Position numbers and translations under genes: made by a program
Source: Candidatus Cloacimonadales bacterium
GTDB lineage: Bacteria > Cloacimonadota > Cloacimonadia > Cloacimonadales > JAFGVF01
Direction: 5' to 3'
NCBI GenBank assembly: GCA_963677495.2
Contig: CAXXOU010000004.1
Span: 1,248,001-1,312,000, forward strand
DNA length: 64,000 nt
In this document: positions 11,392 through 45,517 of the stretch, one piece after another
How positions within the stretch are numbered: position 1 is the stretch's first letter
Layout of the letters: each line of letters begins with the position of its first letter
Notes under the pieces: model-generated
Databases searched by the model: none
Told to the model about the DNA's origin: nothing
The model's input: the letters and a program-made list of their open reading frames with translations, nothing else

Positions 11392-11484
11392 AAAGTTATG
11401 CACACGATGTGGATAACTTTAGGGGTTCATAGGGAGGGTCTAGGGAGGCTAAAGGGAGGGACAAGCGAGATTCCAGGTTTTTGA
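11392..11484. repeat. 93-bp element, copy 1: inverted DnaA-box-like pair followed by 11-bp periodic AGGGAGG units
   Basis: TTATGCACA-cga-TGTGGATAA; AGGGAGG at 11431, 11442, 11453; ends TTCCAGGTTTTTGA; same layout at 21963-22055. Confidence 0.7.
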
Positions 11485-11707: not shown

Positions 11708-11784
11708 GCCCCTGTAGCTCAGCTGGATAGAGCAGTTCCCTCCTAAGGAAAAGGTCACGTGTTCGAATCGCGTCAGGGGTGCCA
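11708..11784 (+). tRNA. tRNA-Arg(CCT)
   Basis: Acceptor stem GCCCCTG/CAGGGGT, D arm AGCTCAGCTGGATAGAGC, anticodon loop CT-CCT-AA, GTTCGAATC, encoded CCA. Confidence 0.97.
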
Positions 11785-11942
11785 GACTACAATGATATCA
11801 TTCTAGATAATGCACTTCGTATGGATAATCCTAACACTATTGACTAGAGTAGAAACTACTCTAAGCTGGTTTTGCTATACTTTGACAGTTTAATTTAGTA
11901 GTATCACAATTGTTATAAGCAAATCAAGTATTCAATAACAAA

Positions 11943-11971
11943 GTAAAGGGTACCTAAATGGTACCCTTTAC
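11943..11971. terminator. Hairpin, probable terminator between the tRNA and the convergent gene
   Basis: GTAAAGGGTACC-taaat-GGTACCCTTTAC; T-rich run follows on the minus strand. Confidence 0.75.
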
Positions 11972-11991
11972 ACTCAATTGCAGTTAGTAAC

Positions 11992-14900
11992 CTATTTGAG
12001 CATAACTGATTTCTCAGTTATGATTTTATTATTAGTGATCATTTTGAAGATATAGACTCCTGATGAAGCCATCTTATTATCCGAATCTTTTCCATTCCAA
12101 GTTTCTAAGTGCCTACCTTCAGCTTTAACACCATCACACAATATTTTAATCAATTGTCCCTTCATATTGTAAACTGATATTCTCACATTCTGTTCTGATT
12201 TAAGTGAAAAAGAGATTGTAGTTGATGGATTGAATGGATTGGGGTATATACTATTGATTTCTGTTAGATAACTAATGTCTGGAGTGTCTCCTGGTTGTTC
12301 AATATCAGTTATTGTTACAGTGATTGGGCCGTATAATAAAGAAGAGCCATCAATATCAACAGACTCAAGCCAGTAATAATACTCATGTTCTAGTTCCACC
12401 TCTTCATCAATAAAGTTATATTGCTGTTCAGTAGATGTATTTGTGCTCGAAATGATACTGTTATTCACTCTATGTGAATTAGAAACTAAATTATCCATAT
12501 TTCTAAAGATATTGAATCCAATCAAATCTGTTTCTGATTGTGTAACCCAATTTATTTTTGCAGAATTATCTGCTGTAGAAACTGCCGTGAATGAGGAAAG
12601 TTCTACAGGTAAAGTAGATCCTCCACCACCATTAACTGCGAACTCTTCCTCACCTCTATCATTGGAAACCCAATCAAATTCAACTTGCCCTTGTGAAAAG
12701 ACAACATTGTTCGGTGCAATTGGAACAACTTCCCAAACTGCTCCATTGAGATGGACTAATTCAGTTGGTGTAAAACTGCCTAGAAAATTAAACACTATTC
12801 TGGTCAAGTTTCCATTTGGAAGAGTTAATCTAAGAGCAGCTCCACAATTGCTAGGATTTGGTAGTGGTACATCAGGTTGATCCTGAACTTGCAAAGGAAC
12901 ACTTAAAGCACTAACTTCAGAATCAAATGATAAATCAACAGTTGGAATTACATTTCCATCTCCTAAATCAATCAAAGGGAATGAGATTTGTGGTGGGGTT
13001 GTTCCACTGTACTCAATAACTTCTGCGTAAACAACTTCAGCTGGTTCCTGAGCAGTATTTGAAGGTTCTGGCATAACTGTAAATGACCATTCAACTGGAG
13101 ATTCGCAATCACCTGAGTCATTATATGGAATCACTTTCCAATTAACAATCTCTCCCCATTCTGCTATATTCAGTCTTTGATGGTAAAGGATATCAGAAGT
13201 ATATTCAATTATGTTTACAAGCGTATTTCCCTGGTATATTTTAAAATGAGTTGGTAACTCCAATCCTCTATATCTCCAGTTTACAGTCACTGTTCTAGGT
13301 CTATCTGTTGAAGAATCCTCTGGGAAAATATTAGTCGCAGCAGAAGGTTTTTCAGCAAAAGTTTGCCATTCTAAATATGGGTAACCATCATTCTTATTGG
13401 AATCTATTTCCCAGATTGGAGACGAGAAATCCCAATTTGCATCGGTAAATGTTGAAATTTGTTTCATCTCTGCATTTGATTTTCCTATACCACCATTATA
13501 ACTGCTACTTTGCCCTGAGGTCTCAGTATCCCAAAAAGAATCTGTTATACTATCAGATGAGTAATAGTTATATGCCATTAGGCCACCAGTATAATCATTA
13601 CCTGTAATACTTCCACTGTTATAGGAATTCGATATATTTATCGTAGCTTGGGCTCTTCCAACAAAACCACCACTAAAACTATCTCCAAAGGTCGATACTC
13701 TGTTGTAACAATTAGTAATTGTCAATGTGCCACTTCCAGCATAACCAACAAAACCACCAGCATTTGTATAGGAACCGTTAACCGTTCCTGTACTATAACA
13801 AGAAGTGATTGATGTGCTTCCAGATGAAGTGCCAATGAATGCTCCAACATTACCCCAGCATGTGAAGTCAACATCCACAAGTCCAAGATTTGAGATGCTT
13901 GCCCCATTTGTAGAAGTAAAGAAAGCTCTACCATATATTGCTTTATCTATGAACAGACCTGAAATAACATGACCTTGCCCATTGTACGAGCCGGAGAATG
14001 ATATTGCTGAAAGCCCCTCTCCTCCGTTCCAAGTTGAACTTTCTGAAGCATCAATGTCGGATGTTTGTATGAAGTGCTTATCCCAGTATCCACTATTTTC
14101 TGAAAAATTCCTAAGATCCGTTAGATCAGATATTATATAAGGGTCTCCAATTGTTCCAGAGCCACTAAACAAACTTACAAATGAAGTCGTAAAACTAATC
14201 TGATTACCATAGTATGTACCGGTAGTATTAGTAATATATGCTCTAACGTAATATGTTGTAGATGATGATAAACCAGATATATCAGATGTAAATGCTCCAA
14301 GAGATACTGCACTTCCTTCATCATTTGAAGAATCGAAGACAGTAGGACTTCCAGTAGTATTCCAGCACACTCCATGAGCAGAGATAGGAGAATCCAATGA
14401 GAGTATAGTTCCATTTCCGGTTGCTGTCGTCCCAGTAATTTCTGTTACTGCTTGCGTTGTAACTAGAGATTCGGTTGTAAAACTAACTTGATCACCATAA
14501 ATAGTTCCTGTATCATCTATTATATATGCTTTAAGATAATAAGTTTGACCGGATTCTAATCCGGTAACATTGGATGTAAATGTTCCAGTACTAATTGTTG
14601 CACCTTCATCGGTCGAAGAATCTAAGATAGTAGGATTTCCTGATATATTCCAACAAACTCCATGAGCTGTTATTGCTGTTGTTCCAATAGAAGTGATGTT
14701 ACCATTTCCGGTTGCAGTAGTAACACCTATATTCGACACTGCCTGTGTAGTAACAGTACCAGGAGTTCCCGGACAAGTAACAGTGTAACTTATATCTTGT
14801 GGAGTACTTTCATATTGCCCAGATTGAGCAACAACAGTACCATTATGATCTTTAATCTGATATTCATTTTCATATGAGTAACCACCTGCGAAGTATTGAG

Positions 14901-16257
14901 TTGTTATTACATCAGAACATGTTACTGAGAACTCAAATATTTGTGGACCGTAGCCAGTATTAAGTGTTAGATTAGACAAGACAACAGAGCTGTTAACTAG
15001 CAAGTTAATTGATCCACCATTCCAGCCATCTCCAAAGGAATCCGTTAGTTCGATAGTCCATGTTTGACTAACAGATGCAACAGCTGTGAAACTTACTTCA
15101 TTACCATAAGAAGTTCCCCCACTGTTAGTTGCATAGGCTCGGACATAATACGTCTCCCCTTCTGTTAGTCCTGTTATTGATGAGGAGAAAGATCCTGTAC
15201 TAGTTACACTTCCTTCAGTTGTATGATTATCATCTGTAGTTGGAGTTCCAGTTGTATTCCAACAAACACCATGTTCAGAAGGATTTTCTTCACCTAAATT
15301 CGTAATATTACCATTTCCGGTAGCAGTAGTAGCATCGATACCTGAAACAGCTTGTGTTGTAACTGTAGGAGGATCAATCTGCTGCCATCTATAAGCATAA
15401 ACTCCTCCACCTTCTCTATAACCAACAAAATCTTCTATGCTGTTCATACCACAAGCTTGTTCACTATTTGTTTGATCGTAAGCAAGTAACGAATAACTAC
15501 CTGAAGAAATTTCGTAAATGAAGTTGATTTTGACAGCTCCAGAAGTTTCATAATATGCTAAAATATGAGTTGCATTAACATCTTCAATATTCGTTGATTG
15601 GTACCAAGTCATTTGGGGACTGTTTGGATCTCCATCAACTCCATAATCAATAGATGTCCATGTGTCATTGCTGATGTTATACATAAATCCAGTATTTACG
15701 TTTGAGTAGTTATTCCCACTGTTTCCAATAATGACATTTCCGTATATACTTGTAAATTTTGTGTTTGCATAACTTGGTCTGTCTATTGTTGTCCATGTGT
15801 CAGTCCCTGAGTCGTATAAACAGCCATGATAATTAGTTCCATCATAATAGTATCCTATATAACTATCACCATAAACACCTAACATTTCTGTTTGATATCC
15901 GGATGTATGATCTAATTGTGTCCAAGTTATTCCATCATACATAAAGCCGTGTGATACAGCACCACTGTCTTTAAAGTATCCTACAATGTTATCCCCATCA
16001 ATTCCCTGTGGATATGTAAAATTTTCTCCCGGATACATAAGTGTTTGAAAGCTAGCTCCATTATTAGTTGTTTTGAATCCAACAACTGATGTATAAGTCG
16101 AATTAATAGACATTCCAATTATATTCTCATTATCAATATCAGTAGCCCATGTACTATCTCCATAATATTGGAAATATGTCATTGACTGGGCATTGAGAAA
16201 TGTAGAAATTAGTAATACACAAGCTATAATACAAAAAACTTTGATCTTTGTTTCCAT
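11992..16257 (-). CDS. Large secreted/surface protein with three FN3-like repeats, a GLUG-like region and a FlgD-Ig/T9SS-like C-terminal domain
   Basis: ATG at 16257 after AGGAGA, signal peptide; three VTTQAV..TATGNG..HGVCWN..TYY(V/L)(R/K)AY repeats; LPVELSSF motif; YPNPFNP...SGVY...MLK C-terminus. Confidence 0.85.
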   Translation of the reverse strand: METKIKVFCIIACVLLISTFLNAQSMTYFQYYGDSTWATDIDNENIIGMSINSTYTSVVGFKTTNNGASFQTLMYPGENFTYPQGIDGDNIVGYFKDSGAVSHGFMYDGITWTQLDHTSGYQTEMLGVYGDSYIGYYYDGTNYHGCLYDSGTDTWTTIDRPSYANTKFTSIYGNVIIGNSGNNYSNVNTGFMYNISNDTWTSIDYGVDGDPNSPQMTWYQSTNIEDVNATHILAYYETSGAVKINFIYEISSGSYSLLAYDQTNSEQACGMNSIEDFVGYREGGGVYAYRWQQIDPPTVTTQAVSGIDATTATGNGNITNLGEENPSEHGVCWNTTGTPTTDDNHTTEGSVTSTGSFSSSITGLTEGETYYVRAYATNSGGTSYGNEVSFTAVASVSQTWTIELTDSFGDGWNGGSINLLVNSSVVLSNLTLNTGYGPQIFEFSVTCSDVITTQYFAGGYSYENEYQIKDHNGTVVAQSGQYESTPQDISYTVTCPGTPGTVTTQAVSNIGVTTATGNGNITSIGTTAITAHGVCWNISGNPTILDSSTDEGATISTGTFTSNVTGLESGQTYYLKAYIIDDTGTIYGDQVSFTTESLVTTQAVTEITGTTATGNGTILSLDSPISAHGVCWNTTGSPTVFDSSNDEGSAVSLGAFTSDISGLSSSTTYYVRAYITNTTGTYYGNQISFTTSFVSLFSGSGTIGDPYIISDLTDLRNFSENSGYWDKHFIQTSDIDASESSTWNGGEGLSAISFSGSYNGQGHVISGLFIDKAIYGRAFFTSTNGASISNLGLVDVDFTCWGNVGAFIGTSSGSTSITSCYSTGTVNGSYTNAGGFVGYAGSGTLTITNCYNRVSTFGDSFSGGFVGRAQATINISNSYNSGSITGNDYTGGLMAYNYYSSDSITDSFWDTETSGQSSSYNGGIGKSNAEMKQISTFTDANWDFSSPIWEIDSNKNDGYPYLEWQTFAEKPSAATNIFPEDSSTDRPRTVTVNWRYRGLELPTHFKIYQGNTLVNIIEYTSDILYHQRLNIAEWGEIVNWKVIPYNDSGDCESPVEWSFTVMPEPSNTAQEPAEVVYAEVIEYSGTTPPQISFPLIDLGDGNVIPTVDLSFDSEVSALSVPLQVQDQPDVPLPNPSNCGAALRLTLPNGNLTRIVFNFLGSFTPTELVHLNGAVWEVVPIAPNNVVFSQGQVEFDWVSNDRGEEEFAVNGGGGSTLPVELSSFTAVSTADNSAKINWVTQSETDLIGFNIFRNMDNLVSNSHRVNNSIISSTNTSTEQQYNFIDEEVELEHEYYYWLESVDIDGSSLLYGPITVTITDIEQPGDTPDISYLTEINSIYPNPFNPSTTISFSLKSEQNVRISVYNMKGQLIKILCDGVKAEGRHLETWNGKDSDNKMASSGVYIFKMITNNKIITEKSVMLK

Positions 16258-16939
16258 TATATCTCTCCTTTCCTTATCTTGCATCCTTGTTTTCTTTTTA
16301 CAATATTTAAATTCCATTCATTTGATAATTTTACTGTAGTACTTGTTATACTTGCGATGGTTAGTATTGCATTTACGTTTGGATTTTCTAAGTAGAGTGA
16401 TTTTAAAATCCACTTCTATTTTCTTTAAGAAAACTAAATAAAGAAACTTGTAGATTTCATTAACCTAGCGACAAAACATTCTTGACTATGATAAAATCTT
16501 TGTTTTCCATTTTACTTTTGATGAAGTTGACAATTACTGAAACAATATTCAAGATGATTACTTCAATAATTTGATTGAGAACTTATTTCATATACTTGCA
16601 ATATATTATAGGGTAGTTATTTATTGTAAAGTTTTTTTTGCATTGTTGCTGAAGTAGTGTAAATTGTTGTCCATTACTTTTGATTTTCGTTAAAACTCAG
16701 AATAAACGAAGAATCTTGTATTACTATTTATTAAGCTTGTACAGATGAGAATGTTTAGTGCAATATAGTTACACCATAGCCAGTCTTCACTACATTTCAC
16801 TATTCAGTCTTACGCAAAAAAGTCATGCTCTCTCTGGTCATGTCTAACCGTAGTATCAGCTGTCCGTCTTTTGCCAGTCAACTTCCTTAATAGCTATCCA
16901 ATATACTACTAAGTAATATTTTACAATGTTAATCCCATA

Positions 16940-16984
16940 TCCTAAGGAAAAAGGTCGTGCGTTCGAATCGCGCCAGGAGTGCCA
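16940..16984 (+). mobile_element. 3'-half copy of tRNA-Arg(CCT); att-like island junction
   Basis: TCCTAAGGAAAAAGGTCGTGCGTTCGAATCGCGCCAGGAGTGCCA versus tRNA 11741-11784; begins in the anticodon loop with no 5' half. Confidence 0.8.
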
Positions 16985-17068
16985 AAATCAAAATATATAA
17001 CAAATATCTTGCCATTATCTTACAAGGCACCTTAATCTACTAAATTGATATTGAATTGGAGAAGATAT

Positions 17069-18136
17069 ATGAAACGACTGACTTATGTCAGCAGACTAAA
17101 TATGAGCATTTCTAACAAAGAACTAGAAGCTATGGGATTACATTCACAGGAAAAGAATCTGAGAGTAGGTATTACAGGTGTGCTCATCTATTTCAAGGAG
17201 CTATTTTTTCAGATTATTGAAGGAGCTGACAGCGAAATAGATACTTTGTTTAAAAAGATTCGAATGGATCTTCGTCACAAAGACATCTTATGTTTAAAGA
17301 CAGAGAATGATATTGGTGAACGTTTATTTCCCACATGGTCTATGAATGTTATAAATCTTGATAACAATACAGATATTCTCATGAGTCCGATCAAAAATCT
17401 CCTTCAGACGATAACTGAATCGCACAGAATTATTGAACAATACACTCAACCTACTGTATTAAATATAATCAATAAGGGATTGAACCCATTGCACATGCCT
17501 GCTAGGAAAGTCGAGAAGATAGTACTCTTTGCAGATATTGTCTCGTTTTCAGAGATTAGTGAACAGCTACCGGTTGAGTTTATAGTTGAGATTATAAACC
17601 GATTCTTTGAAATCACATCCAGAATAATTACTGCAGCAGGTGGAGAAGTTACAAAATACATTGGTGATTGTGTAATGGCCTATTTTGACCCTGAATTAGC
17701 TGATAATGCAATTCAAGGTTGTATTGACATTCTTCGTGAATTGAAACTGGCAAGAGAGAATGCAGCGAGAGATAATCCTATCAGTTTGCTACATTGTGGT
17801 ATTGGATTATCCCAAGGAGTTGTTATTGAGGGGAACATGGGGTCTGCTATTAAAACCGATTATACCATAATAGGAGATCAAGTAAACACTGCTTCGAGAG
17901 TTGAAGATCTGACACGGCAAGTAAAAAAAGCTATAGTTGTAACCGAAAGAGTAAAAAATAGTACAACAAGTACTTTCAACTTTGTACCACTTGGAAAGTA
18001 TAGTTTAAAAGGCAAAAATAAGGCATTCGAATTGTTCTATCCTGATCATGATTTGGTAAATGATTTTGATATTCAAGACATTATAAGTCAAAAGATGAAA
18101 AGACTTTACATTTTTAAAGGAATCTGTAAAGAGTAA
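17069..18136 (+). CDS. Photoactivated adenylyl cyclase (BLUF plus class III cyclase), bPAC/OaPAC-like
   Basis: BLUF Y6/N30/Q48/W90/M92; cyclase D156, D200, K196, T266, N273, R277; ATG after GGAGAAG. Confidence 0.95.
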   Translation: MKRLTYVSRLNMSISNKELEAMGLHSQEKNLRVGITGVLIYFKELFFQIIEGADSEIDTLFKKIRMDLRHKDILCLKTENDIGERLFPTWSMNVINLDNNTDILMSPIKNLLQTITESHRIIEQYTQPTVLNIINKGLNPLHMPARKVEKIVLFADIVSFSEISEQLPVEFIVEIINRFFEITSRIITAAGGEVTKYIGDCVMAYFDPELADNAIQGCIDILRELKLARENAARDNPISLLHCGIGLSQGVVIEGNMGSAIKTDYTIIGDQVNTASRVEDLTRQVKKAIVVTERVKNSTTSTFNFVPLGKYSLKGKNKAFELFYPDHDLVNDFDIQDIISQKMKRLYIFKGICKE

Positions 18137-18209
18137 CTTAAAACTACATTTGCTAAAAGTTGATAGCCAGAATACTGAAGCCATTGAAAAGAGCAAATAA
18201 GGAGATGTT

Positions 18210-18659
18210 TTGAAATTTGTTGAAATAACAAATGAAAATTGGGAAGAAGTGATTAGATTAAGACCTAAAGTTGAACAAAATGATTGTTTAAGGACAGATA
18301 TCGCCTTGCATTCGTTAGCTAGGGCCTATGTGCAGAAAGATAGACCAGATAGGTTAATCCCATATGCTATTGAAGAAAACGGGCAACTGATTGGAATGTT
18401 TCTTCTGAGAAATTATGGAATAGGATGTAACTTAACAAGTTTCTTTATTGACCATAATTTTCAAGGAAAGGGATTTGGAAGAGCAACCATGAATATGTTT
18501 ATCTCTTATGTAAAAGCAAACTATCCACATTCAGAGGAAATAGAACTTGCTGTTTCACCATGCAACAAGATTGCTGAGAGCTTATATTTGAGTCTAGGGT
18601 TTGAATATACCGGGCAAAAAACAAAGAAGGGGAATCTTTATATGGAGTTACATTTCTAA
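18210..18659 (+). CDS. GNAT acetyltransferase
   Basis: FIDHNFQGKGFG motif A, AESLYLSLGF; AAGGAG RBS before TTG. Confidence 0.85.
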   Translation: MKFVEITNENWEEVIRLRPKVEQNDCLRTDIALHSLARAYVQKDRPDRLIPYAIEENGQLIGMFLLRNYGIGCNLTSFFIDHNFQGKGFGRATMNMFISYVKANYPHSEEIELAVSPCNKIAESLYLSLGFEYTGQKTKKGNLYMELHF

Positions 18660-18833
18660 TCATCAATATCTAAGATACTGCTATTAACAATCTCTAAATG
18701 CTCATTATTCCTTATAGTTCCAAACCTATCGACACTTCTTACAAATGCCTTAACATAAATACCTTGTATAATGATTGAGTAACAACATTGAAACCTGAAG
18801 CTCTATTAGCTACCTATATTATTACTTTCATAA

Positions 18834-21497
18834 TTATACTCGTGCTTTATATATATCCTTTTTGAACTGTAAGGTCCATTTTAAACCGTTTTGATTTTCA
18901 AAAGATAACTTCCCATCAAGTTGATGGCTTCCTAACATGTTCACTAAGTTAAGCCCTAGTTTAGAACCTTTATTCAAATCAAAACCATTTTTTAAACCAA
19001 CCCCATCATCAGCAATTGAGATGCTAATAGAGTCATCTTCATCCAACAATGATATCATTAATTTACCGGTTCGTCGGTCAGGCCAAGCGTGTTTAAACGA
19101 ATTAGTGATTAACTCATTAATTATCAATCCTAGTGGAGTCGCAACATCCAGTAGAACAAAAGTATCATTCATATCATATTCAATATTGACTTTATTCATT
19201 TTACTTGAGTAACTTAACAATATTTGGTCCGCAAGTTCATATATATATTCTTTGAGATTTATCCTTGATAGGTCATTGGATTGATACAGTTTCTGATGAA
19301 CAAGAGCCATAGATTTAACTTTGAATTTTATATCATTTACTACTCTTTTTAAATCATCGTTTTGGAACTGCTCTTCAATCATATAGAGCAAGGAAATGAT
19401 AATCTGCATATTGTTCTTTGTTCTGTGATACAATTCTTTAATCAGAACATTTCGCTCATCTAAATCTTGTTTTATCCTATTCTGAGCATCTTTTATCTCT
19501 GAAATATCAACAATAAAACTTTCATAATAAGCTGTACCCTTTAGTGGGTCTCTTTGAATCTTAGAAGTTAATAGTACCCATATAGGTTCACCGGTCTTTT
19601 TTTTAAATCTGATCTCTGTATTTTGAATGCCATTACTACAGCTTAAGGAGAGTTTCTTTAACAACTCTTCTCTTTCGCTTTCATCGTAGTAAATCGCACT
19701 TTCATTCATTTGCATCAACTCATCAATACTTGAAAATCCTAATATTTGTGCAAAAGCATCATTAGCCAGAATGAAATCACCTTCATTGGTCGTTTGATAA
19801 TAACCAACAGGTGCTAGTGTGATAATTTCTTTGTATAGTTTTTCTTTTTGTTTTGCTTCTTCCTCAGCTAGTTTGCGTTCAGTAATATCCAAAATCATTC
19901 CATTAGCGTATTCTATCATGTTAGGGTCATCTTCATAAGGAATCCCATTAGAACGAATATCCAGCCATCTCAAACCTTTTTGAGGGTGATTATAGCGCAG
20001 TTCAATACTAAGTTTATAAGGTGGCTTCATCCCATCCTCGTTTGCCTTTAACATGGCCGGAAGGTCTTCTCTATTGACATAGGAGAACCATTTTTCAAAC
20101 ATATGACTATCTTCTTCTTTCACACCCAATACTTCCATAAAAGAGGGACTTACTTGGATTACTTCTATCTGTCCGTTATCTCTGTTCAGGCGAGTACGAT
20201 AAATCACATAACCTACAGGGTTTTCTACAAGAGAACGGAGATCTCTTTCATTACGCTTGATATCAATATCTGCTTGAATACGCTTAGTAATATCATAGTT
20301 TGTGCCAATCATATAAATCGGGTCACCATTATCATTACGCAAAACCACACCATCCGCTTTAATCCATCGAATAGATCCATCATGCCAAACAACCCTAAAC
20401 TCTATGTCATAGGTGTTCTCACCTTTTAATGCTTTGCTAACTGCTTCTTCCGCTACTACCCTATCATCCGGATGCAAACAGCTCTGCCAAAACTCATAAG
20501 TTAGTTCATTGGGAATTTCAACAATTCCATACAAATCAAAGATTCGCTTATCCCAGAACATACTATTTTGTTCTATATCCCAGTCCCAGATTCCCACTCC
20601 AGCAGCTTTTGTGGCTATAGAAAGTCTTCTCTCCCCTTTTATCAAGTTTCTTTCAGCTTGTTTCTGATTTGTAACATCGTTCAATGTTACAATCAGATTT
20701 CCGGTAATGAACTGAGCATATAACTCACATACTCTAACAGAACCATCTTTGCATGTGATTTTATATTCACCGGTATTTAAAGGTTCACCTGTTTCCTTTG
20801 CTTTCTCAAGAAAGTGTTTCCAACGATCAACAACTTCACTTCTGTATTTGGAATCCGGATAGGCTAATTCATACCATTCTTTGGCAGTCTTAGGCTTATG
20901 TTCAAACAAATCTATAGCACTTTTACTCCAAAACAGTATGCTTTCATTATCTTTATCCACCACAGCAACAGGGAAAGGACTATTATTAAGTATAGAGCGT
21001 ATTCTATATTCACTTTCCTCCAGTTTCTCTTGATTTGCTTTCAGTTTTTCTTCGCTTGCTGCAAGTTTTTGAATAGTTGTCTTTAATTCTTGCTCGTATT
21101 CCTCTTTTTGAATAATCTCTTTTTGGACTTCAAAAGACCTCTTTATTGCCGGTTCCAATTTAAATAACTTGTCCTTGATTATATAATCCCATGCCCCATG
21201 GTGTATACAGTTTACAGCTACTTCTTCACTCAGTGCACCCGTTACAATTATCACTGGGATCTGTGGGCAAATCTCCTTGGCAATTTTTATAACTTCCAAG
21301 CCATTCTCCGGGCCTAAATTGTAATCAGACAGGATGATATCAGGTTGAAACGATTTTACAGTTTCAGTAAAACCTCCAACTGATTCTAATATAACATGTT
21401 CGTATTGCTTGAATATTTTCTTGAGTTCAATCAGAAGTAATTCTGCGTCAAATTGATTATCTTCTAAAATCAATATCTTATAGTTTTCATAACTCAT
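18834..21497 (-). CDS. Hybrid sensor kinase: receiver, multiple PAS domains, HisKA_2 and HATPase
   Basis: ILILED..DIILSDYNL receiver; PAS/PAC repeats; ELYHRTKNN H-box; NELITNSFKHA, DDGVG. Confidence 0.9.
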   Translation of the reverse strand: MSYENYKILILEDNQFDAELLLIELKKIFKQYEHVILESVGGFTETVKSFQPDIILSDYNLGPENGLEVIKIAKEICPQIPVIIVTGALSEEVAVNCIHHGAWDYIIKDKLFKLEPAIKRSFEVQKEIIQKEEYEQELKTTIQKLAASEEKLKANQEKLEESEYRIRSILNNSPFPVAVVDKDNESILFWSKSAIDLFEHKPKTAKEWYELAYPDSKYRSEVVDRWKHFLEKAKETGEPLNTGEYKITCKDGSVRVCELYAQFITGNLIVTLNDVTNQKQAERNLIKGERRLSIATKAAGVGIWDWDIEQNSMFWDKRIFDLYGIVEIPNELTYEFWQSCLHPDDRVVAEEAVSKALKGENTYDIEFRVVWHDGSIRWIKADGVVLRNDNGDPIYMIGTNYDITKRIQADIDIKRNERDLRSLVENPVGYVIYRTRLNRDNGQIEVIQVSPSFMEVLGVKEEDSHMFEKWFSYVNREDLPAMLKANEDGMKPPYKLSIELRYNHPQKGLRWLDIRSNGIPYEDDPNMIEYANGMILDITERKLAEEEAKQKEKLYKEIITLAPVGYYQTTNEGDFILANDAFAQILGFSSIDELMQMNESAIYYDESEREELLKKLSLSCSNGIQNTEIRFKKKTGEPIWVLLTSKIQRDPLKGTAYYESFIVDISEIKDAQNRIKQDLDERNVLIKELYHRTKNNMQIIISLLYMIEEQFQNDDLKRVVNDIKFKVKSMALVHQKLYQSNDLSRINLKEYIYELADQILLSYSSKMNKVNIEYDMNDTFVLLDVATPLGLIINELITNSFKHAWPDRRTGKLMISLLDEDDSISISIADDGVGLKNGFDLNKGSKLGLNLVNMLGSHQLDGKLSFENQNGLKWTLQFKKDIYKARV

Positions 21498-21962
21498 ATT
21501 CCCATCCTCGCAAATTAGGTAAGGTTTCGTAGCATTTTCACACATTATATCTCATAAAATGATAATTACGTATACTCCTGTGTGTAATTTGTATCAAATA
21601 CAATAGATTTAGTCAATCTAATATTTCGATTATGTTTGAAAAGAAAATGAGATTTCTCAATTAAATTATGGTGCTTTCTCGACAGCCAAGCTCAGATTCG
21701 TAGTCTAATCATAACCTTGGAGTAAAGTATTGTAGTTAGACTTAATTTATCCTTCAAAGGTCATTATGAAGCACTACTAAACAGCACTGTAAAAGATTAT
21801 CTTCAGTTAATTTCGATAAAGTTGTTTATAATTCAACTGTTTCAAATATAAAGAATTTTTACGAATCATACTAGGCATTATAATCCTGTGCAAGATCTCA
21901 TTATCATCCCGGTTCCAGGTTCTATCCATGCCCCCGATTAAAAATATGCTTTAACGCTTGAA

Positions 21963-22055
21963 AAAGTTATCCACGCAATGTGGATAACTTTGGCCTTCGC
22001 CAAGGAGGGTCCTTGGTGGCTCCTTGGTGGTTCCTACTTGGTTCCATGTTTTTGA
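21963..22055. repeat. 93-bp element, copy 2: inverted DnaA-box-like pair followed by 11-bp periodic CCTTGGTGG-like units
   Basis: TTATCCACG-caa-TGTGGATAA; units at 22000, 22011, 22022, 22033; ends TTCCATGTTTTTGA. Confidence 0.7.
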
Positions 22056-22199
22056 TTGGGAGCAATAAGGGGTTAATAATGCTAAATGCTAAATGTAAAA
22101 GATAGGGTATAAAATATTAACTATTGACAGTATTAAATTAAATCCTTAATTATGAATTATATTCATGTAGTTATCTGTAAAGTAATTGTTGGATGGTAA

Positions 22200-23648
22200 A
22201 TGATGAATGCAAATGATGTAAATAGAGACGACATTAGCGAAGAAAAAAAATCATTATCTAATGATTTATCTATTTCAGATATTGAAGTTTTGCTCAACAA
22301 CTCTGAAACTGCCTATATCCTTATAAATGGAGATCTAACAATTCAAGCTTTTAACCGCAAAGCGAATCAAAACTCCCTTATTGTGTATGGGAAAGAATTG
22401 CAAGTAGGCAAATCTATGATTGATTTTACAATACAAGGTACAGAGGAAGACTTTCAAAAAGATTTTTATAGCTGCCTGCAAGGTAGAACAATTCGTGTAG
22501 ATTTTGGGACCCCGTCTGATAATCCAGTTTTTTGGTTTGATTTCCGTTACAATCCTGTCATAAATAGCTCAGGAAATATAGATAAAGTGCTTTTTTCTGT
22601 TAATGATATAACTGAACGAAAAATCGCTGAGATTAAATTAAAAGAGAGCGAAGAAAGGTTTAAGGCTTTACATAACGCCTCTTTTGGTGGTATAGCCATT
22701 CATGATAAAGGAATAATTCTTGAATGTAACAAAGGATTATCAGAAATAACAGGTTATTCCCAAAGTGAATTGCATGGAATGGATGGTCTTCTGCTTATTG
22801 CTCCACAAACTAGAGATTATGTTATGGATAAAATAGTTTCCCATTATGAGAAGCCATATGAAGCTTTGGGTATCAAAAAGGATAAAACAGTATATCCTCT
22901 TAGATTAGAAGCAAGAGAAATCCCATATATGGGAAAGACAGTCAGAGCAGTTGAATTCAGAGATATAACAGAAGAGAAAGAAAAAGAAGCAGAAATAAAG
23001 AAAGCACTTAAAGTTAAAGAAGCACTTTTAAGAGAGCTTTATCACCGAACTAAGAACAACATGGGTGTAATCTCCGCTATTCTTTTAATCAATTCAGAAA
23101 GAACAGATGACTTACAAACCAAAAATGTTTTACGAGAGATTAATAACAAAATTGAAGTCATGGCATTGGTACACCAAAAGCTCTACCAGGCTCAAGATCT
23201 AACTAATATTGAACTTGATAAGTATATTAGAGACTTAACTGAGTTGATTGTTAGTTCCTATGGAAAACTCTCAAATGACATAACTGTTAATTATAATTTA
23301 AGTGATGTTCAGATGTCAATTGATTATGCTATTCCCTTAGGATTAATTATTGCTGAGTTGATATCTAACACCTTGAAACATGCTTTTCCTGAGAACAATA
23401 ATGGAGTTATTGATATTTCGCTTAGAAATCAAGATAATAATGACCTTATATTTACCTACTCTGATAACGGAATCGGACTAGAAAAAAGCATAAACCCTAA
23501 ATTCAACGGCTCAATGGGTTTCACATCAATATATGCAATAGCAGAAGGGCAACTAAATGGAGAAGTTAGTGTAAATACAAATATGGGATTAAGTTGGACA
23601 ATAAAATTAAAGAATCTATCATCAACTGAGAGAGTTTATAATGAATAA
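22200..23648 (+). CDS. PAS-domain HisKA_2 sensor histidine kinase
   Basis: Two PAS domains; ELYHRTKNN; ELISNTLKHAF; SDNGIG. Confidence 0.9.
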   Translation: MMNANDVNRDDISEEKKSLSNDLSISDIEVLLNNSETAYILINGDLTIQAFNRKANQNSLIVYGKELQVGKSMIDFTIQGTEEDFQKDFYSCLQGRTIRVDFGTPSDNPVFWFDFRYNPVINSSGNIDKVLFSVNDITERKIAEIKLKESEERFKALHNASFGGIAIHDKGIILECNKGLSEITGYSQSELHGMDGLLLIAPQTRDYVMDKIVSHYEKPYEALGIKKDKTVYPLRLEAREIPYMGKTVRAVEFRDITEEKEKEAEIKKALKVKEALLRELYHRTKNNMGVISAILLINSERTDDLQTKNVLREINNKIEVMALVHQKLYQAQDLTNIELDKYIRDLTELIVSSYGKLSNDITVNYNLSDVQMSIDYAIPLGLIIAELISNTLKHAFPENNNGVIDISLRNQDNNDLIFTYSDNGIGLEKSINPKFNGSMGFTSIYAIAEGQLNGEVSVNTNMGLSWTIKLKNLSSTERVYNE

Positions 23649-24006
23649 GACAATACTGATTGTAGAAGATGAAGCTTTAATAGCGATGTTACTGAAAATT
23701 ATGCTTGAGAAAGAGGGATATCAAATCTGTGGTAGTTTTGCTAAGGGTGAAGAAGCAGTAGAATTTGTCAAAACATCAAGTCCTGCTTTAATATTAATGG
23801 ATATAAACTTAGCCGGGACTATCAACGGGATTGAAACTGCAAGAAGTATAAAGACTATTTCAGATATCCCCTTGATTTTTATGTCCGGTTATCATATCTC
23901 AGATTATCAAGAGGAGATAGACAAAATAAAACCGATAACCTACCTAACCAAACCGATTCGATTTGCTGATTTAAAACCATATCTAGAACAAGTTTTTAAT
24001 GAATAA
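23641..24006 (+). CDS. Single-domain response regulator
   Basis: LIVEDE, LILMDINL, FMSG, LTKP; overlaps the kinase stop codon. Confidence 0.92.
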   Translation: MNKTILIVEDEALIAMLLKIMLEKEGYQICGSFAKGEEAVEFVKTSSPALILMDINLAGTINGIETARSIKTISDIPLIFMSGYHISDYQEEIDKIKPITYLTKPIRFADLKPYLEQVFNE

Positions 24007-24337
24007 ACTAGATGCATACTAATCTAGTTATACAATTCAGAAATACCCACATGAATAAATTCATAAAGTGAATTTAAATCTCTCTTAGTTCAGACTTGTG
24101 ATTCTCTTCTGAAAGATATTAAAGATTTAACTGGGTTAAGTCACTTTTTGTTTTGAAACAACAATGATTGAAGTATACTTCCATGGAGGTGTGTCCCTTT
24201 ATAACTTTAGTTTACATCTAACTCAGACTGTATACTCAATTTATTGATTATCCTAAAAAAGAATCTTCATTTATAACTTGCCTACATTCAAATGAAACTC
24301 AATTAGTTCTTCAACAGAATATGTCAGGAGTTTCGTT

Positions 24338-24925
24338 ATGGACAAACATAAGGTAGTTAAAGTAGGAGTTATACACGGGAGATTCCAGCTATTGCATCTG
24401 GAACATGTTGAATACTTACTAGCAGCAAAGCAACGATGTGAGTTTCTGTATATATGTATTACTAATATAACCCCTCTTCTCTCCAAACAGTTTGAAGGAG
24501 ATTTAAATCGTACAAGCCTGAAAGCAAATCCCTTTACTTACTATGAACGATTGGATATGGTAAGAGATGCCATGCTATCACATGGAATCCCAAGAAATGA
24601 GTTTGAGATTGTACCTCTCCCCATCCGATATCCGGAGACTTATAGCTCTTTTGTCCCCTTAGATGCAACTTTCTATACATCAATCTACGATGATTGGGGG
24701 CGTAAAAAAGTTGAAATATTTAAAGCTCTACACCTCAAAGTTGAAGTCTTATGGGACCGAGATATTAGTGAGAAAAAAATATCAGGTAGCTATGTCAGAG
24801 ACCTAATTGCACATGATAATGAGTGGAAACATCTTGTTCCTAAATCAACTTATGATTATGTTATTAACAACAATTTGGTGCAAAGAATCAGAGATACTTT
24901 TGGAGTAGATCAGGATAGTGAGTAG
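24338..24925 (+). CDS. HIGH-superfamily nucleotidyltransferase (NMN/NaMN adenylyltransferase-like)
   Basis: HGRFQLLHLEH, NPFTYYER, ISGSYVR, WKHLVP. Confidence 0.75.
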   Translation: MDKHKVVKVGVIHGRFQLLHLEHVEYLLAAKQRCEFLYICITNITPLLSKQFEGDLNRTSLKANPFTYYERLDMVRDAMLSHGIPRNEFEIVPLPIRYPETYSSFVPLDATFYTSIYDDWGRKKVEIFKALHLKVEVLWDRDISEKKISGSYVRDLIAHDNEWKHLVPKSTYDYVINNNLVQRIRDTFGVDQDSE

Positions 24926-27148
24926 TGAACTCGAAAGACTCAGAAAATAGAATAAAATCCTACGAAAGATGCTTGGCTTGACTGATGATGAAGTAATCGA
25001 TGACTCTAGCTCTAATTTAGTTAACATCAACAGCCCAGTAGAAGAAAAGATAGCTCTATTTAGCTTATTATTCAGAGGACGTAAGGATGTATATGCAGTA
25101 CGGTGGGAAAGTAAACAGGGAAAGTCAGGTTATTCGCCTGTTTGTTTGAATCGTTGGAACAAGTCTAAATGTGCACTCCCAAAGATTAAGTGTGCAAATT
25201 GCAGCTATACAGAGTACTCCCCTATCACTGACAAGGTTGTTTTCAATCATCTCTCCGGAAGCTTTGTTATGGGGCTTTATCCCCTAAGTAAAAAGAATCA
25301 ATGCTGGTTTCTGGCAATTGACTTTGATGAAAGTACTTGGCGAGATGATGTACTAGCAACACAACAAACTTGTACGAATCTTAACGTACCTTCCTATATA
25401 GAAATCTCCCGCTCTGGGCATGGAGCACACTTATGGATATTCTTTTCAATTGCAATCCCTGCTGTAAGAGCAAGAGAATTAGGAGCTCATATCATTAAAA
25501 CAACCCTTCAATCCGGTAATATGCTGAATCTAAAATCATATGATCGTATGTTTCCGAGCCAAGATGAACTAATGAAAGATGGGTTGGGAAATCTAATTGC
25601 TTTACCTTTACAGAAAAATGCTAGGAATCAAGGCTACTCTGTATTTGTTTCCAGAGACTTCAAAGTCTATCCTGATCAGTGGGCTTTTTTATCCAATGTT
25701 AAGAAGATTACTCCCGAGCAATTAAAGAATGCATTAAACATTATCCCAAATAGTATTAGTGATTTGAAAAGGAACGATGAACCTGCCAAGATTGTGATTG
25801 CTAATCAAATCTATATCTCTAAAGATTGTTTACCTAAAAGTGTTTACTACAAACTAATACAATTAGCATCATTCAGTAATCCTGAATTCTATATCGCACA
25901 AGCTAGTAGAAGATCGACTCATAATATTCCCAAGTTTATTAATTGTAGTACTAACTACCTAAATTCAATATCCCTTCCATCCGGTCTACTTTTCAAAGTA
26001 ATGGAGTTGCTCAAAAGTAATAGGATTGAGTTTACTCTTCTAGATAATCGCTTTGAAGGAAATAGAATCAACATCGAGTTTATTGGTGAGTTAGTTGATA
26101 GTCAAAAGAGGGCAAGTTCAAAAGTCTTGTCAAAAAAATGGTAGTTCTATGTGCTTCAACAGGCTTTGGTAAAACCGTTGTTGCTATTTCAGTTATTGCT
26201 TCTAGAAAGGTTAATACTCTTATTCTGGCTCATAGGAAAGAACTTCTTGAACAGTGGATAGAGAAACTCAACGTATTCTCTGAATTAGATGAGATTGGTG
26301 TAATTGGTCAGTCAAAAAGAAGACTTACACATATTGTGGATGTTGCAATGATACAAAGCCTACGTAGAATGGATTCATCTGACTTTGATAAGTACGGGCA
26401 AATAATAGTAGATGAATGTCATCATATTGCTGCATATTCTTTCGAAAGTATTTTAAAGAAGTTCAGTTCCAGATACATAGTTGGATTAACTGCAACTCCA
26501 AAACGTAAAGATGGATTACATCCAATAATATATATGCAATGTGGAGATTTGATTAGTTTCAGTTCTTCTCATTTCCATTTTACACCCATGTATCTAATCA
26601 AAAGAGAAACTTCATTCTTTTCAAATGAAAAGAGCTTAAAACATGCTCAACTAATATCCGAAATGGCTTCCAATGAAAAGCGAAACTATATGATATTCGA
26701 AGATGTTATTGATGCATTAGAGCGGAAAAGATATCCAATCATTCTTACTGAGCGACTAAACCATGTAAATGCACTTGCTACAATTTTTAGTAAGACATGT
26801 AAGAACTTGATAATTATCAAAGGTGGAATGAGTAAAAAACAACGACAAGAACTTAAAACGACGCTTAAATCTATTCCTGATGGTGAAGAAAGGTTGATTA
26901 TAGCAACTGGGAAATATATAGGAGAAGGTTTTGATTATCCAATATTGGACACATTGTTTTTAACTATGCCAATATCCTGGAAAGGAACGCTACAACAATA
27001 TGTAGGCCGTTTGATGAGAAACTACAAGAATAAAGACTCGATTGAAGTATATGACTATGTTGATGTTGAAGTTCCTAAACTTACTAAAATGTATGAAAAG
27101 CGTTTTAGAGCTTATAGAAGTTTAGGTTTTACTGTAGAGAAAGAGTGA
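24918..27148 (+). pseudogene. Disrupted AEP-primase/SF2 helicase fusion (TOTE-conflict-system-like), given as ORFs 24969-26144 and 26138-27148
   Basis: LFRGRKDVYA, zinc-binding Cys, AIDFD, EISRSGHGAHLWIFF, GLGNLIALPLQ; then ASTGFGKT, DECHH, GLTATP, QQYVGR; in-frame TAG at 24948 and -1 shift at the A7 run 26132-26138. Confidence 0.75.
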
Positions 27149-27150
27149 AT

Positions 27151-28020
27151 CTACACAATATGTAAACTATTCTTAGTTACTTCCACAAACATCTCTTTGC
27201 ACCAAGCTTCGATCTCTTTAGATTCATGGATAAATGGTATGACATCCTGTTTAGCTTGTTCAAAATCTACTTCATTGAATCGTCTTATTAGAAGTTCATT
27301 TAAAACTTCTTGAGTAAGTCTTTTATTAAGTTTGAGATGCCCACTTTGCTTCATGCGTGATTCTAGATGCATAATATTGAGCTTTATTCCCTTACTTAAG
27401 TACCATATATAATCATAGAAATCTCTTCCTTTAACTCGACTACCCCAACTTCGACATAACAAGGCATGTACTTTTCCTGCAAAAAGAGAATCCAAAGTAT
27501 AGGTTTTAACTGAGAAAGCGATTGGATTCAGATGATACTTGTTCTCGAATGTGGCACCTTTCGGTGGGTTGATATCAACTTCAAGCTTTATCTTTATCAA
27601 CTCATCTGAATGAATGCTTTGGATTAAACTGTCAGATGGAACAATACGTAAAAGATGAACTTTGGTTCCACCCTTTATAAACGCAGTTCTTATATTTGAA
27701 TTTTGAGATTTGCTTTTTTCAATGACCTGCATATCAAATCCGAAAGAGCCTAATTCGTCTTTTACGTACTTAGAATACTTTGAAAGAGTAAAATCAGTAT
27801 CAGGATGAATCAGACTAAAATCCAAATCCTCTGAGAATCTATTCAATCCATAGAATATTCTTAAACACGTACCACCGTAAAAGGTAGCATAATTAAAGAA
27901 TCCGGAACGATACAAACCTAGTAGTGTAACTTCTTGAACTATCTCTTTGATAGCATGCTTTCTGTCCTCAAGATTCTTCAATTCATACTTCTCAAGCATA
28001 GACATTATACCACTATGCAT
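27151..28020 (-). CDS. abiEii: AbiEii-family nucleotidyltransferase toxin (type IV toxin-antitoxin)
   Basis: FYGGTCLRIFYGLNRFSEDLDFS, IKIKLEVD, KVHALLCR..VKGRDFYD. Confidence 0.92.
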   Translation of the reverse strand: MHSGIMSMLEKYELKNLEDRKHAIKEIVQEVTLLGLYRSGFFNYATFYGGTCLRIFYGLNRFSEDLDFSLIHPDTDFTLSKYSKYVKDELGSFGFDMQVIEKSKSQNSNIRTAFIKGGTKVHLLRIVPSDSLIQSIHSDELIKIKLEVDINPPKGATFENKYHLNPIAFSVKTYTLDSLFAGKVHALLCRSWGSRVKGRDFYDYIWYLSKGIKLNIMHLESRMKQSGHLKLNKRLTQEVLNELLIRRFNEVDFEQAKQDVIPFIHESKEIEAWCKEMFVEVTKNSLHIV

Positions 28021-28606
28021 ATATGAACTCCTTCAAATGCCATTCTGCAAACTTAATGCAAATGCGTTTCCTATACAGTTTAGCTAATGTAACAAGTGTC
28101 TGGGAGTTCAGGGATGCAACTCTATCCATATCGACGCGTAGGTCTGACTCAAGTAGCTCATGAAACTTGACATCAGCATTCTTAATTCGTGATAACTTAT
28201 CCAAAACCGCCTTCTCCGGAGTTGCTATTAAAAAACTATAATCACCTTCACTAGTGACAATTACTTCTAAGGGATATGCCTTTTCAGGGACATGGTAATA
28301 ATGAAAAGCTCCAATTGGTGTATTAAATATCTTGTTTTTATTCTTTCCATAAGATGCACATGTAATAGTTTTTACCTGTTCAGGAATCAATCCGTAATAA
28401 CTGAGAGCAGACTCAAAACTAACATAGGAAGGGCCATAAAGAATACCTGATATTGCTTTTAAAGAGTAATTCTGTTCATTACCTGGGATATATAATCCAC
28501 GCTTGATTTGAATGAGTTCTTCACTCTTTATCATTCTAGTTAGCTTCGACTTTGGAGAAGCGTACTCTTTTAATTCTTCTTTTAATCCAAGTGAAGTAAT
28601 TATCAT
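28013..28606 (-). CDS. abiEi: AbiEi-family antitoxin/transcriptional regulator
   Basis: IKRGLY wHTH, PSYVSFESALSYYGLIPE, IATPEKAVLD; overlaps the toxin start. Confidence 0.88.
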   Translation of the reverse strand: MIITSLGLKEELKEYASPKSKLTRMIKSEELIQIKRGLYIPGNEQNYSLKAISGILYGPSYVSFESALSYYGLIPEQVKTITCASYGKNKNKIFNTPIGAFHYYHVPEKAYPLEVIVTSEGDYSFLIATPEKAVLDKLSRIKNADVKFHELLESDLRVDMDRVASLNSQTLVTLAKLYRKRICIKFAEWHLKEFIYA

Positions 28607-28608
28607 TA

Positions 28609-28654
28609 TTCCTCCAATAAGTACAACTTATTCATACTTACTGGAGGAAGTCAA
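28609..28654 (-). promoter_or_regulatory. abiE promoter/operator: 15-bp inverted repeat over the RBS and promoter spacer
   Basis: TTCCTCCAATAAGTA (28609-28623) and TACTTACTGGAGGAA (28635-28649), one mismatch; TTGACT on the minus strand at the distal edge. Confidence 0.7.
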
Positions 28655-28764
28655 GTATTTTGTATTATTAATGCTATAGATAATATTTGACAGTCTTAAT
28701 TGCTTTTTGAATCATGAGCAAGAAACGAATATAAGGAAAGCTTTATTACATAAAGAGTTACACT

Positions 28765-31808: not shown

Positions 31809-31955
31809 TTCATCTCCTATACTATTTCTTTTTACTATACTTTTTATATTTACTACATATTTTACTGATTAGACATATTGTCAAACAAATTTTTCATTTA
31901 TATCCCGTTCCTTTTGCGATAACGCAAACTTTTAGTAAACTCTTTAGCAAAACGC

Positions 31956-32270
31956 AGTCATCCCACTGTTTTCCCACTGTGCACGCACTGTGCTCCCAGT
32001 GAAACAGTGGGTTGGCAGTGGGTTCACAGTGCGTGCACAGTGCGTTGATGGATAGAGCAGTTAAAGGGTGTAAAAAGGGCAGGAAATGTAGCTAAGTGAT
32101 TACAAATGGCACTGTGTATGTCCATTTCGGACTTGCGTTGCAGCGATAGCGTGACGCGAGAACGAAATCAGGGACATGCGACTTCGGAGTGCATTTTAGG
32201 AAGTCCGTTGCCTTATCAGGCTGACAAACTCCCTGAAATGCGGTAAGTTATTGCAAATGGCACTGTGTAT
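31956..32270. repeat. Palindromic CACTG/CAGTG 11-bp-periodic element with modular tail (uninterrupted copy)
   Basis: Perfect 18-bp inverted repeat at 31975-31992 and 32025-32042; homologous to 56857-56910 plus 59271-59570. Confidence 0.85.
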
Positions 32271-42903: not shown

Positions 42904-42932
42904 TCAAGAATGCTAAAGTTGTTAATCCGAAT
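42904..42932. repeat. 29-bp perfect inverted copy of 44329-44357
   Basis: TCAAGAATGCTAAAGTTGTTAATCCGAAT is the exact reverse complement of 44329-44357. Confidence 0.9.
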
Positions 42933-44373: not shown

Positions 44374-45517
44374 TCTTTTTTGCACTCTCTATATCTTTTA
44401 GTCCATGTCCCGTAACTAATAGGACAACTTGCTCATCTGCTTTTACTACACCTTTAAGACTATCTAAAGCTGAATATGTAACTGCAGCTGCAGGTTCTGC
44501 GAAAATACCTGATTTCCTGAAAAGGGCTTTTTGAGCTTTAAGTATCTCCTCTTCAGGTACATTAACTGTTATACCATTGAATTGTTTTACATAATCTGAC
44601 GCCATATAGACGTTCGAAGGAGCCTTAACACTGATTGAATCAGCAATTGTATTAGGGTTTATTGCATCTCTATAAACCCCTGTTTCAATACAATTATTGA
44701 TAGCATCAGAGGTAGCTGTTTGCACAGAAACCAGTCTTGGTAGTTTGTTAATAAAACCAACCGTATATAAATCCTCAAAGCCTTTTGCGACTCCGGAAAG
44801 AATAACACCATCACCTACAGGAATTACAATATAATCGGGGACTTTGAATCCATTCTGCTCATAAATTTCAAAAGCTACTGTTTTCTTTCCCTCAATAGTT
44901 AGAGGATGATATGCAGTGTTTCTGTTAAGCGTTCCATTAGTAATTGTATCATCAATTGATACTTTAAAAGCATCATCATAAGTTCCTTCTACTTCAATAA
45001 CTTCAGCACCGCTAAGTTTCATCTGTATCAGCTTTGCTTCAGGAGCAGAAGCAGGCACATATATCTTTGCTTTTATATCAGTTGAAGCACAGATTGTAGC
45101 TAAGGCAGATGCTGCATTTCCGGTCGAAGCACAAACAACCTCTTTCCTATTCAGTCTGTTTGCTTCCGCGACAACTAAAAATGAAGCTCTGTCCTTTAAA
45201 GAACCGCTTGGATTGCAACCATCAAACTTAATAGATACATTGAAGCCAAACTCATCACTTAACTTGTCAGATCTGAAGAAAGGAGTATTACCTATACTTA
45301 TTGGTGGGAAATACTTGCTATTCACAGGCGAAAAGAGATTCCAGTCAGGTTGTTTGAAATTAAACTCACGCTTAATCTTCTCGTAATCAAGCACAGTCTT
45401 CAAGACCCCTTTTAATGGAGTACCGGGAGTCCAATCTTTCCCACACACATCACATAAATAATGAATCTCTTCAGTTGAGTACTTCTTCCCGCACTCTATG
45501 CACTCATAGTACTGCAT
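44366..45517 (-). CDS. PLP fold-type II enzyme (threonine-synthase-like)
   Basis: N-terminal CxxC..CxxC, GNTP, NPSGSLKDR, ASTGNA, EGKKT, PVGDG, TGHGLKD. Confidence 0.85.
   Translation of the reverse strand: MQYYECIECGKKYSTEEIHYLCDVCGKDWTPGTPLKGVLKTVLDYEKIKREFNFKQPDWNLFSPVNSKYFPPISIGNTPFFRSDKLSDEFGFNVSIKFDGCNPSGSLKDRASFLVVAEANRLNRKEVVCASTGNAASALATICASTDIKAKIYVPASAPEAKLIQMKLSGAEVIEVEGTYDDAFKVSIDDTITNGTLNRNTAYHPLTIEGKKTVAFEIYEQNGFKVPDYIVIPVGDGVILSGVAKGFEDLYTVGFINKLPRLVSVQTATSDAINNCIETGVYRDAINPNTIADSISVKAPSNVYMASDYVKQFNGITVNVPEEEILKAQKALFRKSGIFAEPAAAVTYSALDSLKGVVKADEQVVLLVTGHGLKDIESAKKNV

Follow-up and report, generated by a model that had tools for sequence, protein, structure and literature searches.

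A predicted light-activated cyclase in an apparent anaerobe

The locus studied here raises the question of why a bacterium of the Cloacimonadota that, judging by its gene content, looks like a strict anaerobe should carry a gene for an adenylyl cyclase activated by blue light (PAC), how it came by that gene, and whether the tyrosine at position 197 sets the enzyme apart from its relatives. Coordinates without a locus prefix refer to the window (i.e., the whole 64,000-nucleotide stretch of DNA that was analysed; see Table 1). Briefly, sequence comparisons make it probable, in our view, that the gene encodes a functional single-unit PAC which an anaerobe of the Cloacimonadota gained horizontally, long ago, and which now sits at a tRNA-Arg(CCT) insertion hotspot. 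If active, the protein would extend PACs to a phylum of fermentative anaerobes in whose 231 other genomes we found none; it represents neither a new mechanism nor a new architecture.

A BLUF domain followed by a class III cyclase domain, colinear with bPAC (Beggiatoa) and OaPAC (Oscillatoria acuminata), had been proposed in a preliminary description of this DNA and was borne out by domain searches, alignment and fold. Specifically, Pfam placed BLUF on residues 1–93 (E 8.5e-25) and Guanylate_cyc on residues 152–319 (E 7.6e-20), and the protein shares the BLUF-alpha3-class III cyclase layout of OaPAC (4yus, 5x4t, 9f1y; 50–53% identity) without a gap over residues 1–330 (E 2e-115), with key residues from Y6 to R277 numbered identically. 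Compared by Foldseek, an AlphaFold2 model (pLDDT 83.9, with a 25-sequence alignment as input) reached a TM of 0.90 against OaPAC 9f1y and of 0.89–0.90 against bPAC 5mbd/5m2a; bPAC (5m27, 5mbd) thus shares the fold, at 46–47% identity (E 4e-105). OaPAC differs in length (366 aa vs. 355 aa), in its Phe197 where our protein has Tyr197 (alongside Met22, Phe303 and Gln271), and in its host, a cyanobacterium rather than an anaerobe.

Table 1 Features of the PAC locus and stand-alone BLUF proteins of the phylum
Feature	Position	Strand	Details and basis
Intact tRNA-Arg(CCT)	11708..11784	+	
Protein with FlgD/T9SS-type tail	11992..16317	-	1441 aa; no second long ORF in the interval from tRNA to fragment
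Displaced 3' half of tRNA-Arg(CCT)	16940..16984	+	45 nt, anticodon loop to CCA
Shine-Dalgarno-like GGAG	17058..17061	+	7 nt 5' of PAC ATG; sequence
PAC ORF (P0001), bPAC/OaPAC family	17069..18136	+	355 aa; ORF translation, Pfam, homology, fold
BLUF domain, aa 1-93	17069..17347	+	Y6, S26, N30, Q48, H70, W90, M92; Pfam
Alpha3 signalling helix and handle, aa 96-146	17354..17506	+	L111, I115, R120, Y125, P140; model
Class III cyclase domain, aa 152-319	17522..18025	+	Pfam
PAC cyclase residues			D156, D200 metal; K196, T266 base recognition; N273, R277
Codon of Tyr197	17657..17659	+	TAC; equivalent to OaPAC F197 / bPAC F198
Predicted C-terminal helix, aa 336-350	18074..18118	+	AlphaFold2 model
GNAT acetyltransferase	18210..18659	+	73 nt 3' of PAC gene; domain match
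Stand-alone BLUF protein, genome G180	L123:1351-1779		142-143 aa class
Stand-alone BLUF protein, genome G154	L124:560-991		142-143 aa class

All ten photocycle, catalytic and base-recognition residues named in that description (Y6, Q48, W90, M92, D156, K196, D200, T266, N273 and R277) are present. The full photocycle set (Tyr6, Asn30, Gln48, Trp90 and Met92) is kept, as are Leu111, Ile115, Tyr125, Pro140 and Asn256 of the alpha3/handle relay, whose roles we took from a preprint (bioRxiv 10.64898/2026.03.06.709947). Numbering is offset by one residue from bPAC, as given by the ungapped alignment coordinates and by the preprint's equation of OaPAC F197 with bPAC F198. On this scale, 35 of the 40 bPAC residues named as functional in PMC8522238 and in the preprint are identical, the five exceptions being I122 (for L123), Y197, Y265 (for H266), I267 (for L268) and S276 (for A277). 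The protein departs at just 3 of the 86 columns conserved in at least 90% of the listed homologs (median 2), and its EVTKYIGD motif, correctly read beforehand as K-Y-IGD, stands where OaPAC has EVTKFIGD.

By homology with bPAC and OaPAC, the protein is expected to bind flavin, to be activated by light and to be specific for cAMP, and it would form a homodimer with active sites at the interface. Blue light would rearrange the hydrogen bonds of Y6, Q48 and the flavin, and the signal would pass from W90 and M92 through the alpha3 helix bundle and the handle/tongue to the dimer-interface active sites, where ATP would be converted to cAMP. The C-terminal tail may damp activity, as that of OaPAC does according to PMC6937261. 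Alternatively, the flavin domain might be mainly a redox or temperature sensor, with light incidental. The strictly anaerobic metabolism of the host and its lack of a photolyase would suit such a role, and the oxidation state of the flavin is reported to matter for BLUF photochemistry (bioRxiv 10.64898/2026.03.06.709947); however, nothing in the sequence indicates a redox role and the light-specific Y6, Q48, W90 and M92 are kept, as in nearly all 195 listed homologs including the cyanobacterial ones, and we regard this explanation as improbable.

The PAC gene was found in four sequencing runs from one sample and one study, none listed as RNA. One contig per run, in 4 of 4 runs, showed 0 differing letters over 11728–22005, which speaks against an assembly error at the locus, with the limit that this one sample is possibly the assembly's own source and the agreement hence not independent. 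That the gene turned up in just one of the 232 genomes and in a single sample could point to an assembly chimera or contaminating DNA. Such an origin is scarcely credible to us, since the genome is 99.5% complete with 0.5% contamination, the gene lies on a 1.5-Mb contig, a run contig of even depth joins it to a 1441-aa gene with an 83% identical ortholog in another genome of the genus (G001), and its codon usage is host-like. A promoter/terminator scan stayed at chance level (13 matches vs. 12.0 ± 3.2 expected).

Tyr197 is a common natural variant

Tyr197 had been put forward as a trait that sets this protein apart from bPAC and OaPAC. Within the wider family, our comparisons did not bear out a special status. 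We assembled 195 close homologs from the best 120 of 456 protein matches and from ORFs at the best 80 of 515 loci (77 of the 80 gave usable ORFs, L066, L087 and L119 gave none, and two duplicates were dropped). Of these listed sequences, 164 have Phe at position 197, 26 have Tyr and the other 5 have Leu. Nine of the 13 nearest homologs have the tyrosine, among them a protein that is 67% identical and comes from Desulfonema limicola, a cultured species. So do all 11 members of a Methylococcaceae-containing clade, Fimbriimonadia, and one protein each from Gemmatimonadota and Ilumatobacteraceae. Another search yielded 75 further new sequences, 8 of them with Tyr, and the residue equivalent to F198Y is present in no fewer than 34 natural sequences. 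In 48 distant single-unit representatives the position was occupied by Leu (20), Phe (15), Tyr (6), Ile (5), Val (1) or Met (1), and Tyr stood at the equivalent position in 9 of 14 non-BLUF cyclases of host relatives. Uniqueness of Tyr197 to this protein is therefore rejected.

On a 51-row tree the Phe/Tyr state changed 9 times (bootstrap 7–9, at least 5 forced), and a single origin of Tyr197 was rejected in a clade test on 27 rows (p-AU 7e-6). Given its frequency among the listed homologs, about nine switches on the tree and the commonness of K-Y-x-G-D in ordinary cyclases, the residue is not special: on the sequence evidence, Tyr197 is a common natural variant in the PAC family and one of several residues (F/Y/L/I) tolerated at the site. 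The near-identical sister PACs P0010 (Phe) and P0011 (Tyr), with branches of 0.015 and 0.053, form a natural test pair.

By contrast with these natural sequences, the three characterised PACs that we checked (OaPAC, bPAC and biPAC) each have Phe at this site, a point of interest to tool builders given that at least one Tyr sequence comes from a cultured species. biPAC (Beggiatoa sp. IS2, OQW94152.1), a natural PAC from a MAG that is 49% identical over 330 aa, was considered as an already assayed natural Tyr enzyme and rejected on account of its Phe. Our literature search, with most subscription journals outside its coverage, returned no assayed natural PAC of the Tyr197 type and no paper that deals with naturally occurring Tyr variants or with the PACs of strict anaerobes.

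Does Tyr197 imply low dark activity?

The description had named F198Y as an engineered low-dark mutation of bPAC, and PMC8522238 agrees: dark turnover fell to 4% (about 25-fold down) and light turnover to 18%, the light/dark ratio was about 7000 against about 1600 for the wild type in the same assay, and shut-off was 2.2 times faster. Tyr at 198 is engineered in that enzyme and in PACmn (PMC8522238), and natural in our protein, which has no membrane anchor. One may thus ask whether Tyr197 makes the protein a naturally low-dark, high-contrast cyclase, usable as it is for optogenetics. Besides the bPAC figures, this reading draws on Arg120, which is kept here, whereas R121S raises dark activity in bPAC, and on a simulation that ranks F198 among the top residues (both bioRxiv 10.64898/2026.03.06.709947). 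The Y197 and R120 pairing occurs in 13 of the 195 listed close homologs and an R121S-like Ser at position 120 in 67 of them; in the 9 nearest Tyr homologs, position 120 is Gly in 8 and Ser in one. If, on a broader reading that we hold to be unlikely, the Tyr PACs of anaerobes in general were working low-background switches, the protein with Tyr197 and Arg120 would offer optogenetics a high-contrast cyclase without further engineering, and both engineered states (dark-lowering F198Y and dark-raising R121S) would be represented in the family as in a natural library.

Several observations nevertheless make us doubtful of it. In the part of PMC8522238 available, the F198Y effect was tested solely in the bPAC background, a protein of about 46% identity with His at the place of our Tyr265, and PKA activity in neurons rose even with the soluble form of bPAC(F198Y). 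biPAC has Phe yet 3.5 times less dark activity than bPAC (PMC9624221), so other positions set dark activity, and the site toggles between the sisters P0010 and P0011. In a background this distant from bPAC a single residue is no predictor of dark activity. Of the proposal of a low-background optogenetic candidate, what stands is the Tyr at the F198 site; against it count the commonness of that residue, the loss of light activity in F198Y and the single background in which the mutation is described. Tyr197 may lower both turnover and dark activity, and it bears no mark of a uniquely tuned enzyme. Low dark activity of natural Tyr PACs is a guess, though one directly testable with the natural sequences at hand.

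Probable horizontal gain and phylogenetic placement

BLUF matches were found in 3 of 232 genomes of the phylum, and the BLUF-cyclase fusion in 1 of 232. No full-length PAC match was found among 60 host relatives, nor was the gene found in three other genomes of the genus (one complete, two 72–83% complete). At the best 80 of 515 loci, homologs came from groups as far apart as Desulfobacterales, Riflebacteria, Bacteroidota, cyanobacteria, Methylococcaceae and Acidimicrobiia, among others. With the fusion this rare in the phylum and its homologs this scattered, horizontal gain is the simple reading, and the host lineage likely acquired the gene in this way; vertical inheritance across the phylum, which would have counted against it, was looked for and not seen. 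Photolyase matches passed the cut-off in 3 of the 232 genomes of the phylum, and G154, one of the two with a stand-alone BLUF protein, is among these.

Alignment and phylogeny confirmed the placement in the OaPAC/bPAC family, and the tree tests singled out no donor. The protein grouped with a Desulfobacterales-containing set with weak support (82–89), and in tests on 27 rows its grouping with cyanobacteria (p 0.12), Bacteroidota (p 0.21) or Riflebacteria (p 0.28) was in each case not rejected. Methylococcaceae were rejected as the donor group (p 0.0012, same 27-row test). Nearest to it (65–67%) are D. limicola QTA81394.1, Desulfobacteraceae IS3 OQX12545.1 and a Desulfococcaceae MAG protein, which also have Tyr197; they differ in having Gly or Ser at position 120, shorter branches, another phylum and no shared neighbours. 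The Desulfobacterales homologs are already annotated as BLUF-domain cyclases in public databases, and our literature search returned nothing on BLUF in Desulfonema or in Cloacimonadota, or on a metagenomic phylogeny of PAC homologs. A light sensor in a non-phototroph is not new, since BLUF PACs are known from Beggiatoa, Turneriella, Leptonema and Naegleria (PMC12177928) and homologs occur in other anaerobe lineages.

Relative to the two nearest genomic homologs, pN was 0.21 and pS 0.77–0.79 (i.e., saturated). The gene has a GC3 of 0.293 (host 0.304 ± 0.041), and its codon fit, ranked among 730 host ORFs, falls at the 22nd percentile. Saturated synonymous sites combined with host-like GC3 and codon use indicate, as far as sequence can date it, that the transfer is old.

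The tRNA-Arg(CCT) site

The preliminary description had linked the acquisition to a tRNA att fragment, and the displaced 3' half of tRNA-Arg(CCT) is real, ending 84 nt before the PAC ATG. It matches the tRNA of G001 at 43 of 45 positions and the genome's own tRNA at 39 of 45; being nearer to the G001 allele, it looks like the displaced original tRNA end, in which case the tRNA would formerly have had the PAC gene as its immediate downstream neighbour. Fragments of the 3' end also lie downstream of tRNA-Arg(CCT) in G006, G010 and G011, which suggests that the site is an insertion hotspot.

A simple island is disfavoured. The PAC gene lies outside the interval between tRNA and fragment, we found no second tRNA-Arg(CCT) fragment further downstream of it and no integrase candidate ORF in 11785–17069, and the two tyrosine-recombinase matches in the host genome are both far from the locus. 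Inside the interval is the 1441-aa gene of the host lineage, whose G001 ortholog stands at another locus, and to either side of the tRNA the gene order no longer follows that of G001. Together with the host-like codon usage, this leaves the displaced tRNA half as the part of the att-linked account that holds. For 17000–28700, neither the complete G001 nor G002 showed a DNA match as long as a gene, and G003 showed a single match of 270 nt. Nor were neighbours conserved at the best 80 of 515 PAC loci: the GNAT acetyltransferase and three other neighbours were at 0 of 80, the 903-aa kinase and the response regulator at 1 of 80 each, and a tRNA, never for Arg, at 5 of 80.

Several further features were observed in the window. 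An AEP-TOTE primase (391 aa) and a helicase (336 aa), two ORFs overlapping by 7 nt at 24969–27148, are possibly a frameshifted or split primase-helicase, and an AbiEi/AbiEii pair adjoins them at 27151–28606. Two dispersed, partly palindromic intergenic repeat families (11392–11476, 21963–22050, 31948–32045, 56849–56913 and 59284–59410) recur many times in each of the other three genomes of the genus. A perfect 29-nt inverted repeat (42904–42932 and 44329–44357, 1396 nt apart), one arm of which sits inside the start of a dihydropyrimidinase-like gene (43117–44385), could mark a past or invertible segment. Genes for purine degradation cluster at 43117–54273, among them xanthine dehydrogenase subunits and the selenium-linked SsnA/YgeY, with a tRNA-SeC present in the host genome, and an IS21-family transposase with its helper ATPase lies at 56964–59229.

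Purifying selection or a drifting relic

The pN of 0.21 against a saturated pS fits long purifying selection on the PAC gene. Its branch is nonetheless long (0.40 vs. 0.06–0.15 for the named Desulfobacterales proteins and P0006/P0007), and its identity to each of six outgroups is 2–6 points below that of P0002, P0003 and L043. Divergence is strongest in the BLUF part (47% identity to L050 vs. 60% for P0003). V7, M22 and F303 were found in 0 of the 194 other listed close homologs and Q271 in at most one; at position 22, which presumably lines the flavin pocket, the close homologs have Ile or Leu.

This divergence raises the alternative that the gene came with an old insert and is a drifting relic whose product is by now poorly expressed, blind to light or almost without activity, in a host that is rarely lit. 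The long branch and unique substitutions, the missing photolyase and the failure to find the gene in the three other genomes of the genus all lean that way. An annotation as PAC is also no guarantee of activity, as the natural LiPAC had no measurable activity in oocytes (PMC8522238). On the other hand, the reading frame and Shine-Dalgarno sequence are intact, the photocycle and catalytic residues are all kept despite saturated synonymous sites and host-like codon usage, and two of the unusual residues recur among the 48 distant homologs (Met22 in 2, Phe303 in 4). Considering this, decay seems to us quite unlikely, and we retain the reading of a functional PAC. Among the homologs, one from a delta-proteobacterial MAG (L118:6001-7031) has a frame that stops at 221 aa though the match runs on, reflecting either a broken gene or a sequencing error.

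Host physiology and candidate cAMP outputs

A core protein of the window fell among Atlas clusters in which Candidatus Cloacimonadota is the most frequent taxon. In a domain search, COX1, cytochrome bd, the photolyase FAD-binding domain and the flagellar rod family were all without a match in the host genome, and [FeFe]-hydrogenase had five. The missing oxidase matches and the hydrogenases fit a fermentative anaerobe, in agreement with the earlier description of an anaerobic host of non-phototrophic type. The missing photolyase domain weakens the case for routine light exposure and, if the PAC is active, raises the question of why such an organism senses blue light.

Besides the PAC, the host has three other class III cyclase matches, and its cNMP-binding proteins are three, namely a histidine kinase with a cNMP domain, a SurE-cNMP fusion, and a cNMP domain that stands alone behind a K+ channel gene. 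Two of the three contain a GE...R(S/T)A cassette, no Crp-type HTH regulator gave a match over the cut-off in the host, and a PilB/PilT type IV pilus cluster is present. The likeliest role, itself speculative, would be to read blue light as a warning of a lit, oxygen-producing layer and to signal by cAMP to one of these three proteins, perhaps so as to direct movement by type IV pili; any link of the PAC to pili or to a cNMP protein is pure inference. In Leptospira, a light-linked cyclase without BLUF, LprA, is tied to motility (PMC9043183).

More broadly, the Tyr PACs of anaerobes (this one and those of Desulfonema/Desulfobacteraceae) might be low-background switches for which blue light is a proxy for oxygen, with escape by pili or gliding, a generalisation that we hold to be unlikely. 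Desulfonema are gliding filaments of oxic-anoxic mats, a habit for which our literature search gave no confirmation.

The SurE-cNMP fusion (L131:556-1851, on contig G000:C4 about 16 kb past the window end) joins a SurE 5'-nucleotidase to a C-terminal cNMP-binding domain in 431 aa; the GE normally found in the phosphate-binding cassette is missing from that domain. At L132:298-1917, an Ion_trans_2 and RCK potassium channel gene is followed directly by the stand-alone cNMP-binding protein, a pair that is possibly a split cAMP-gated channel.
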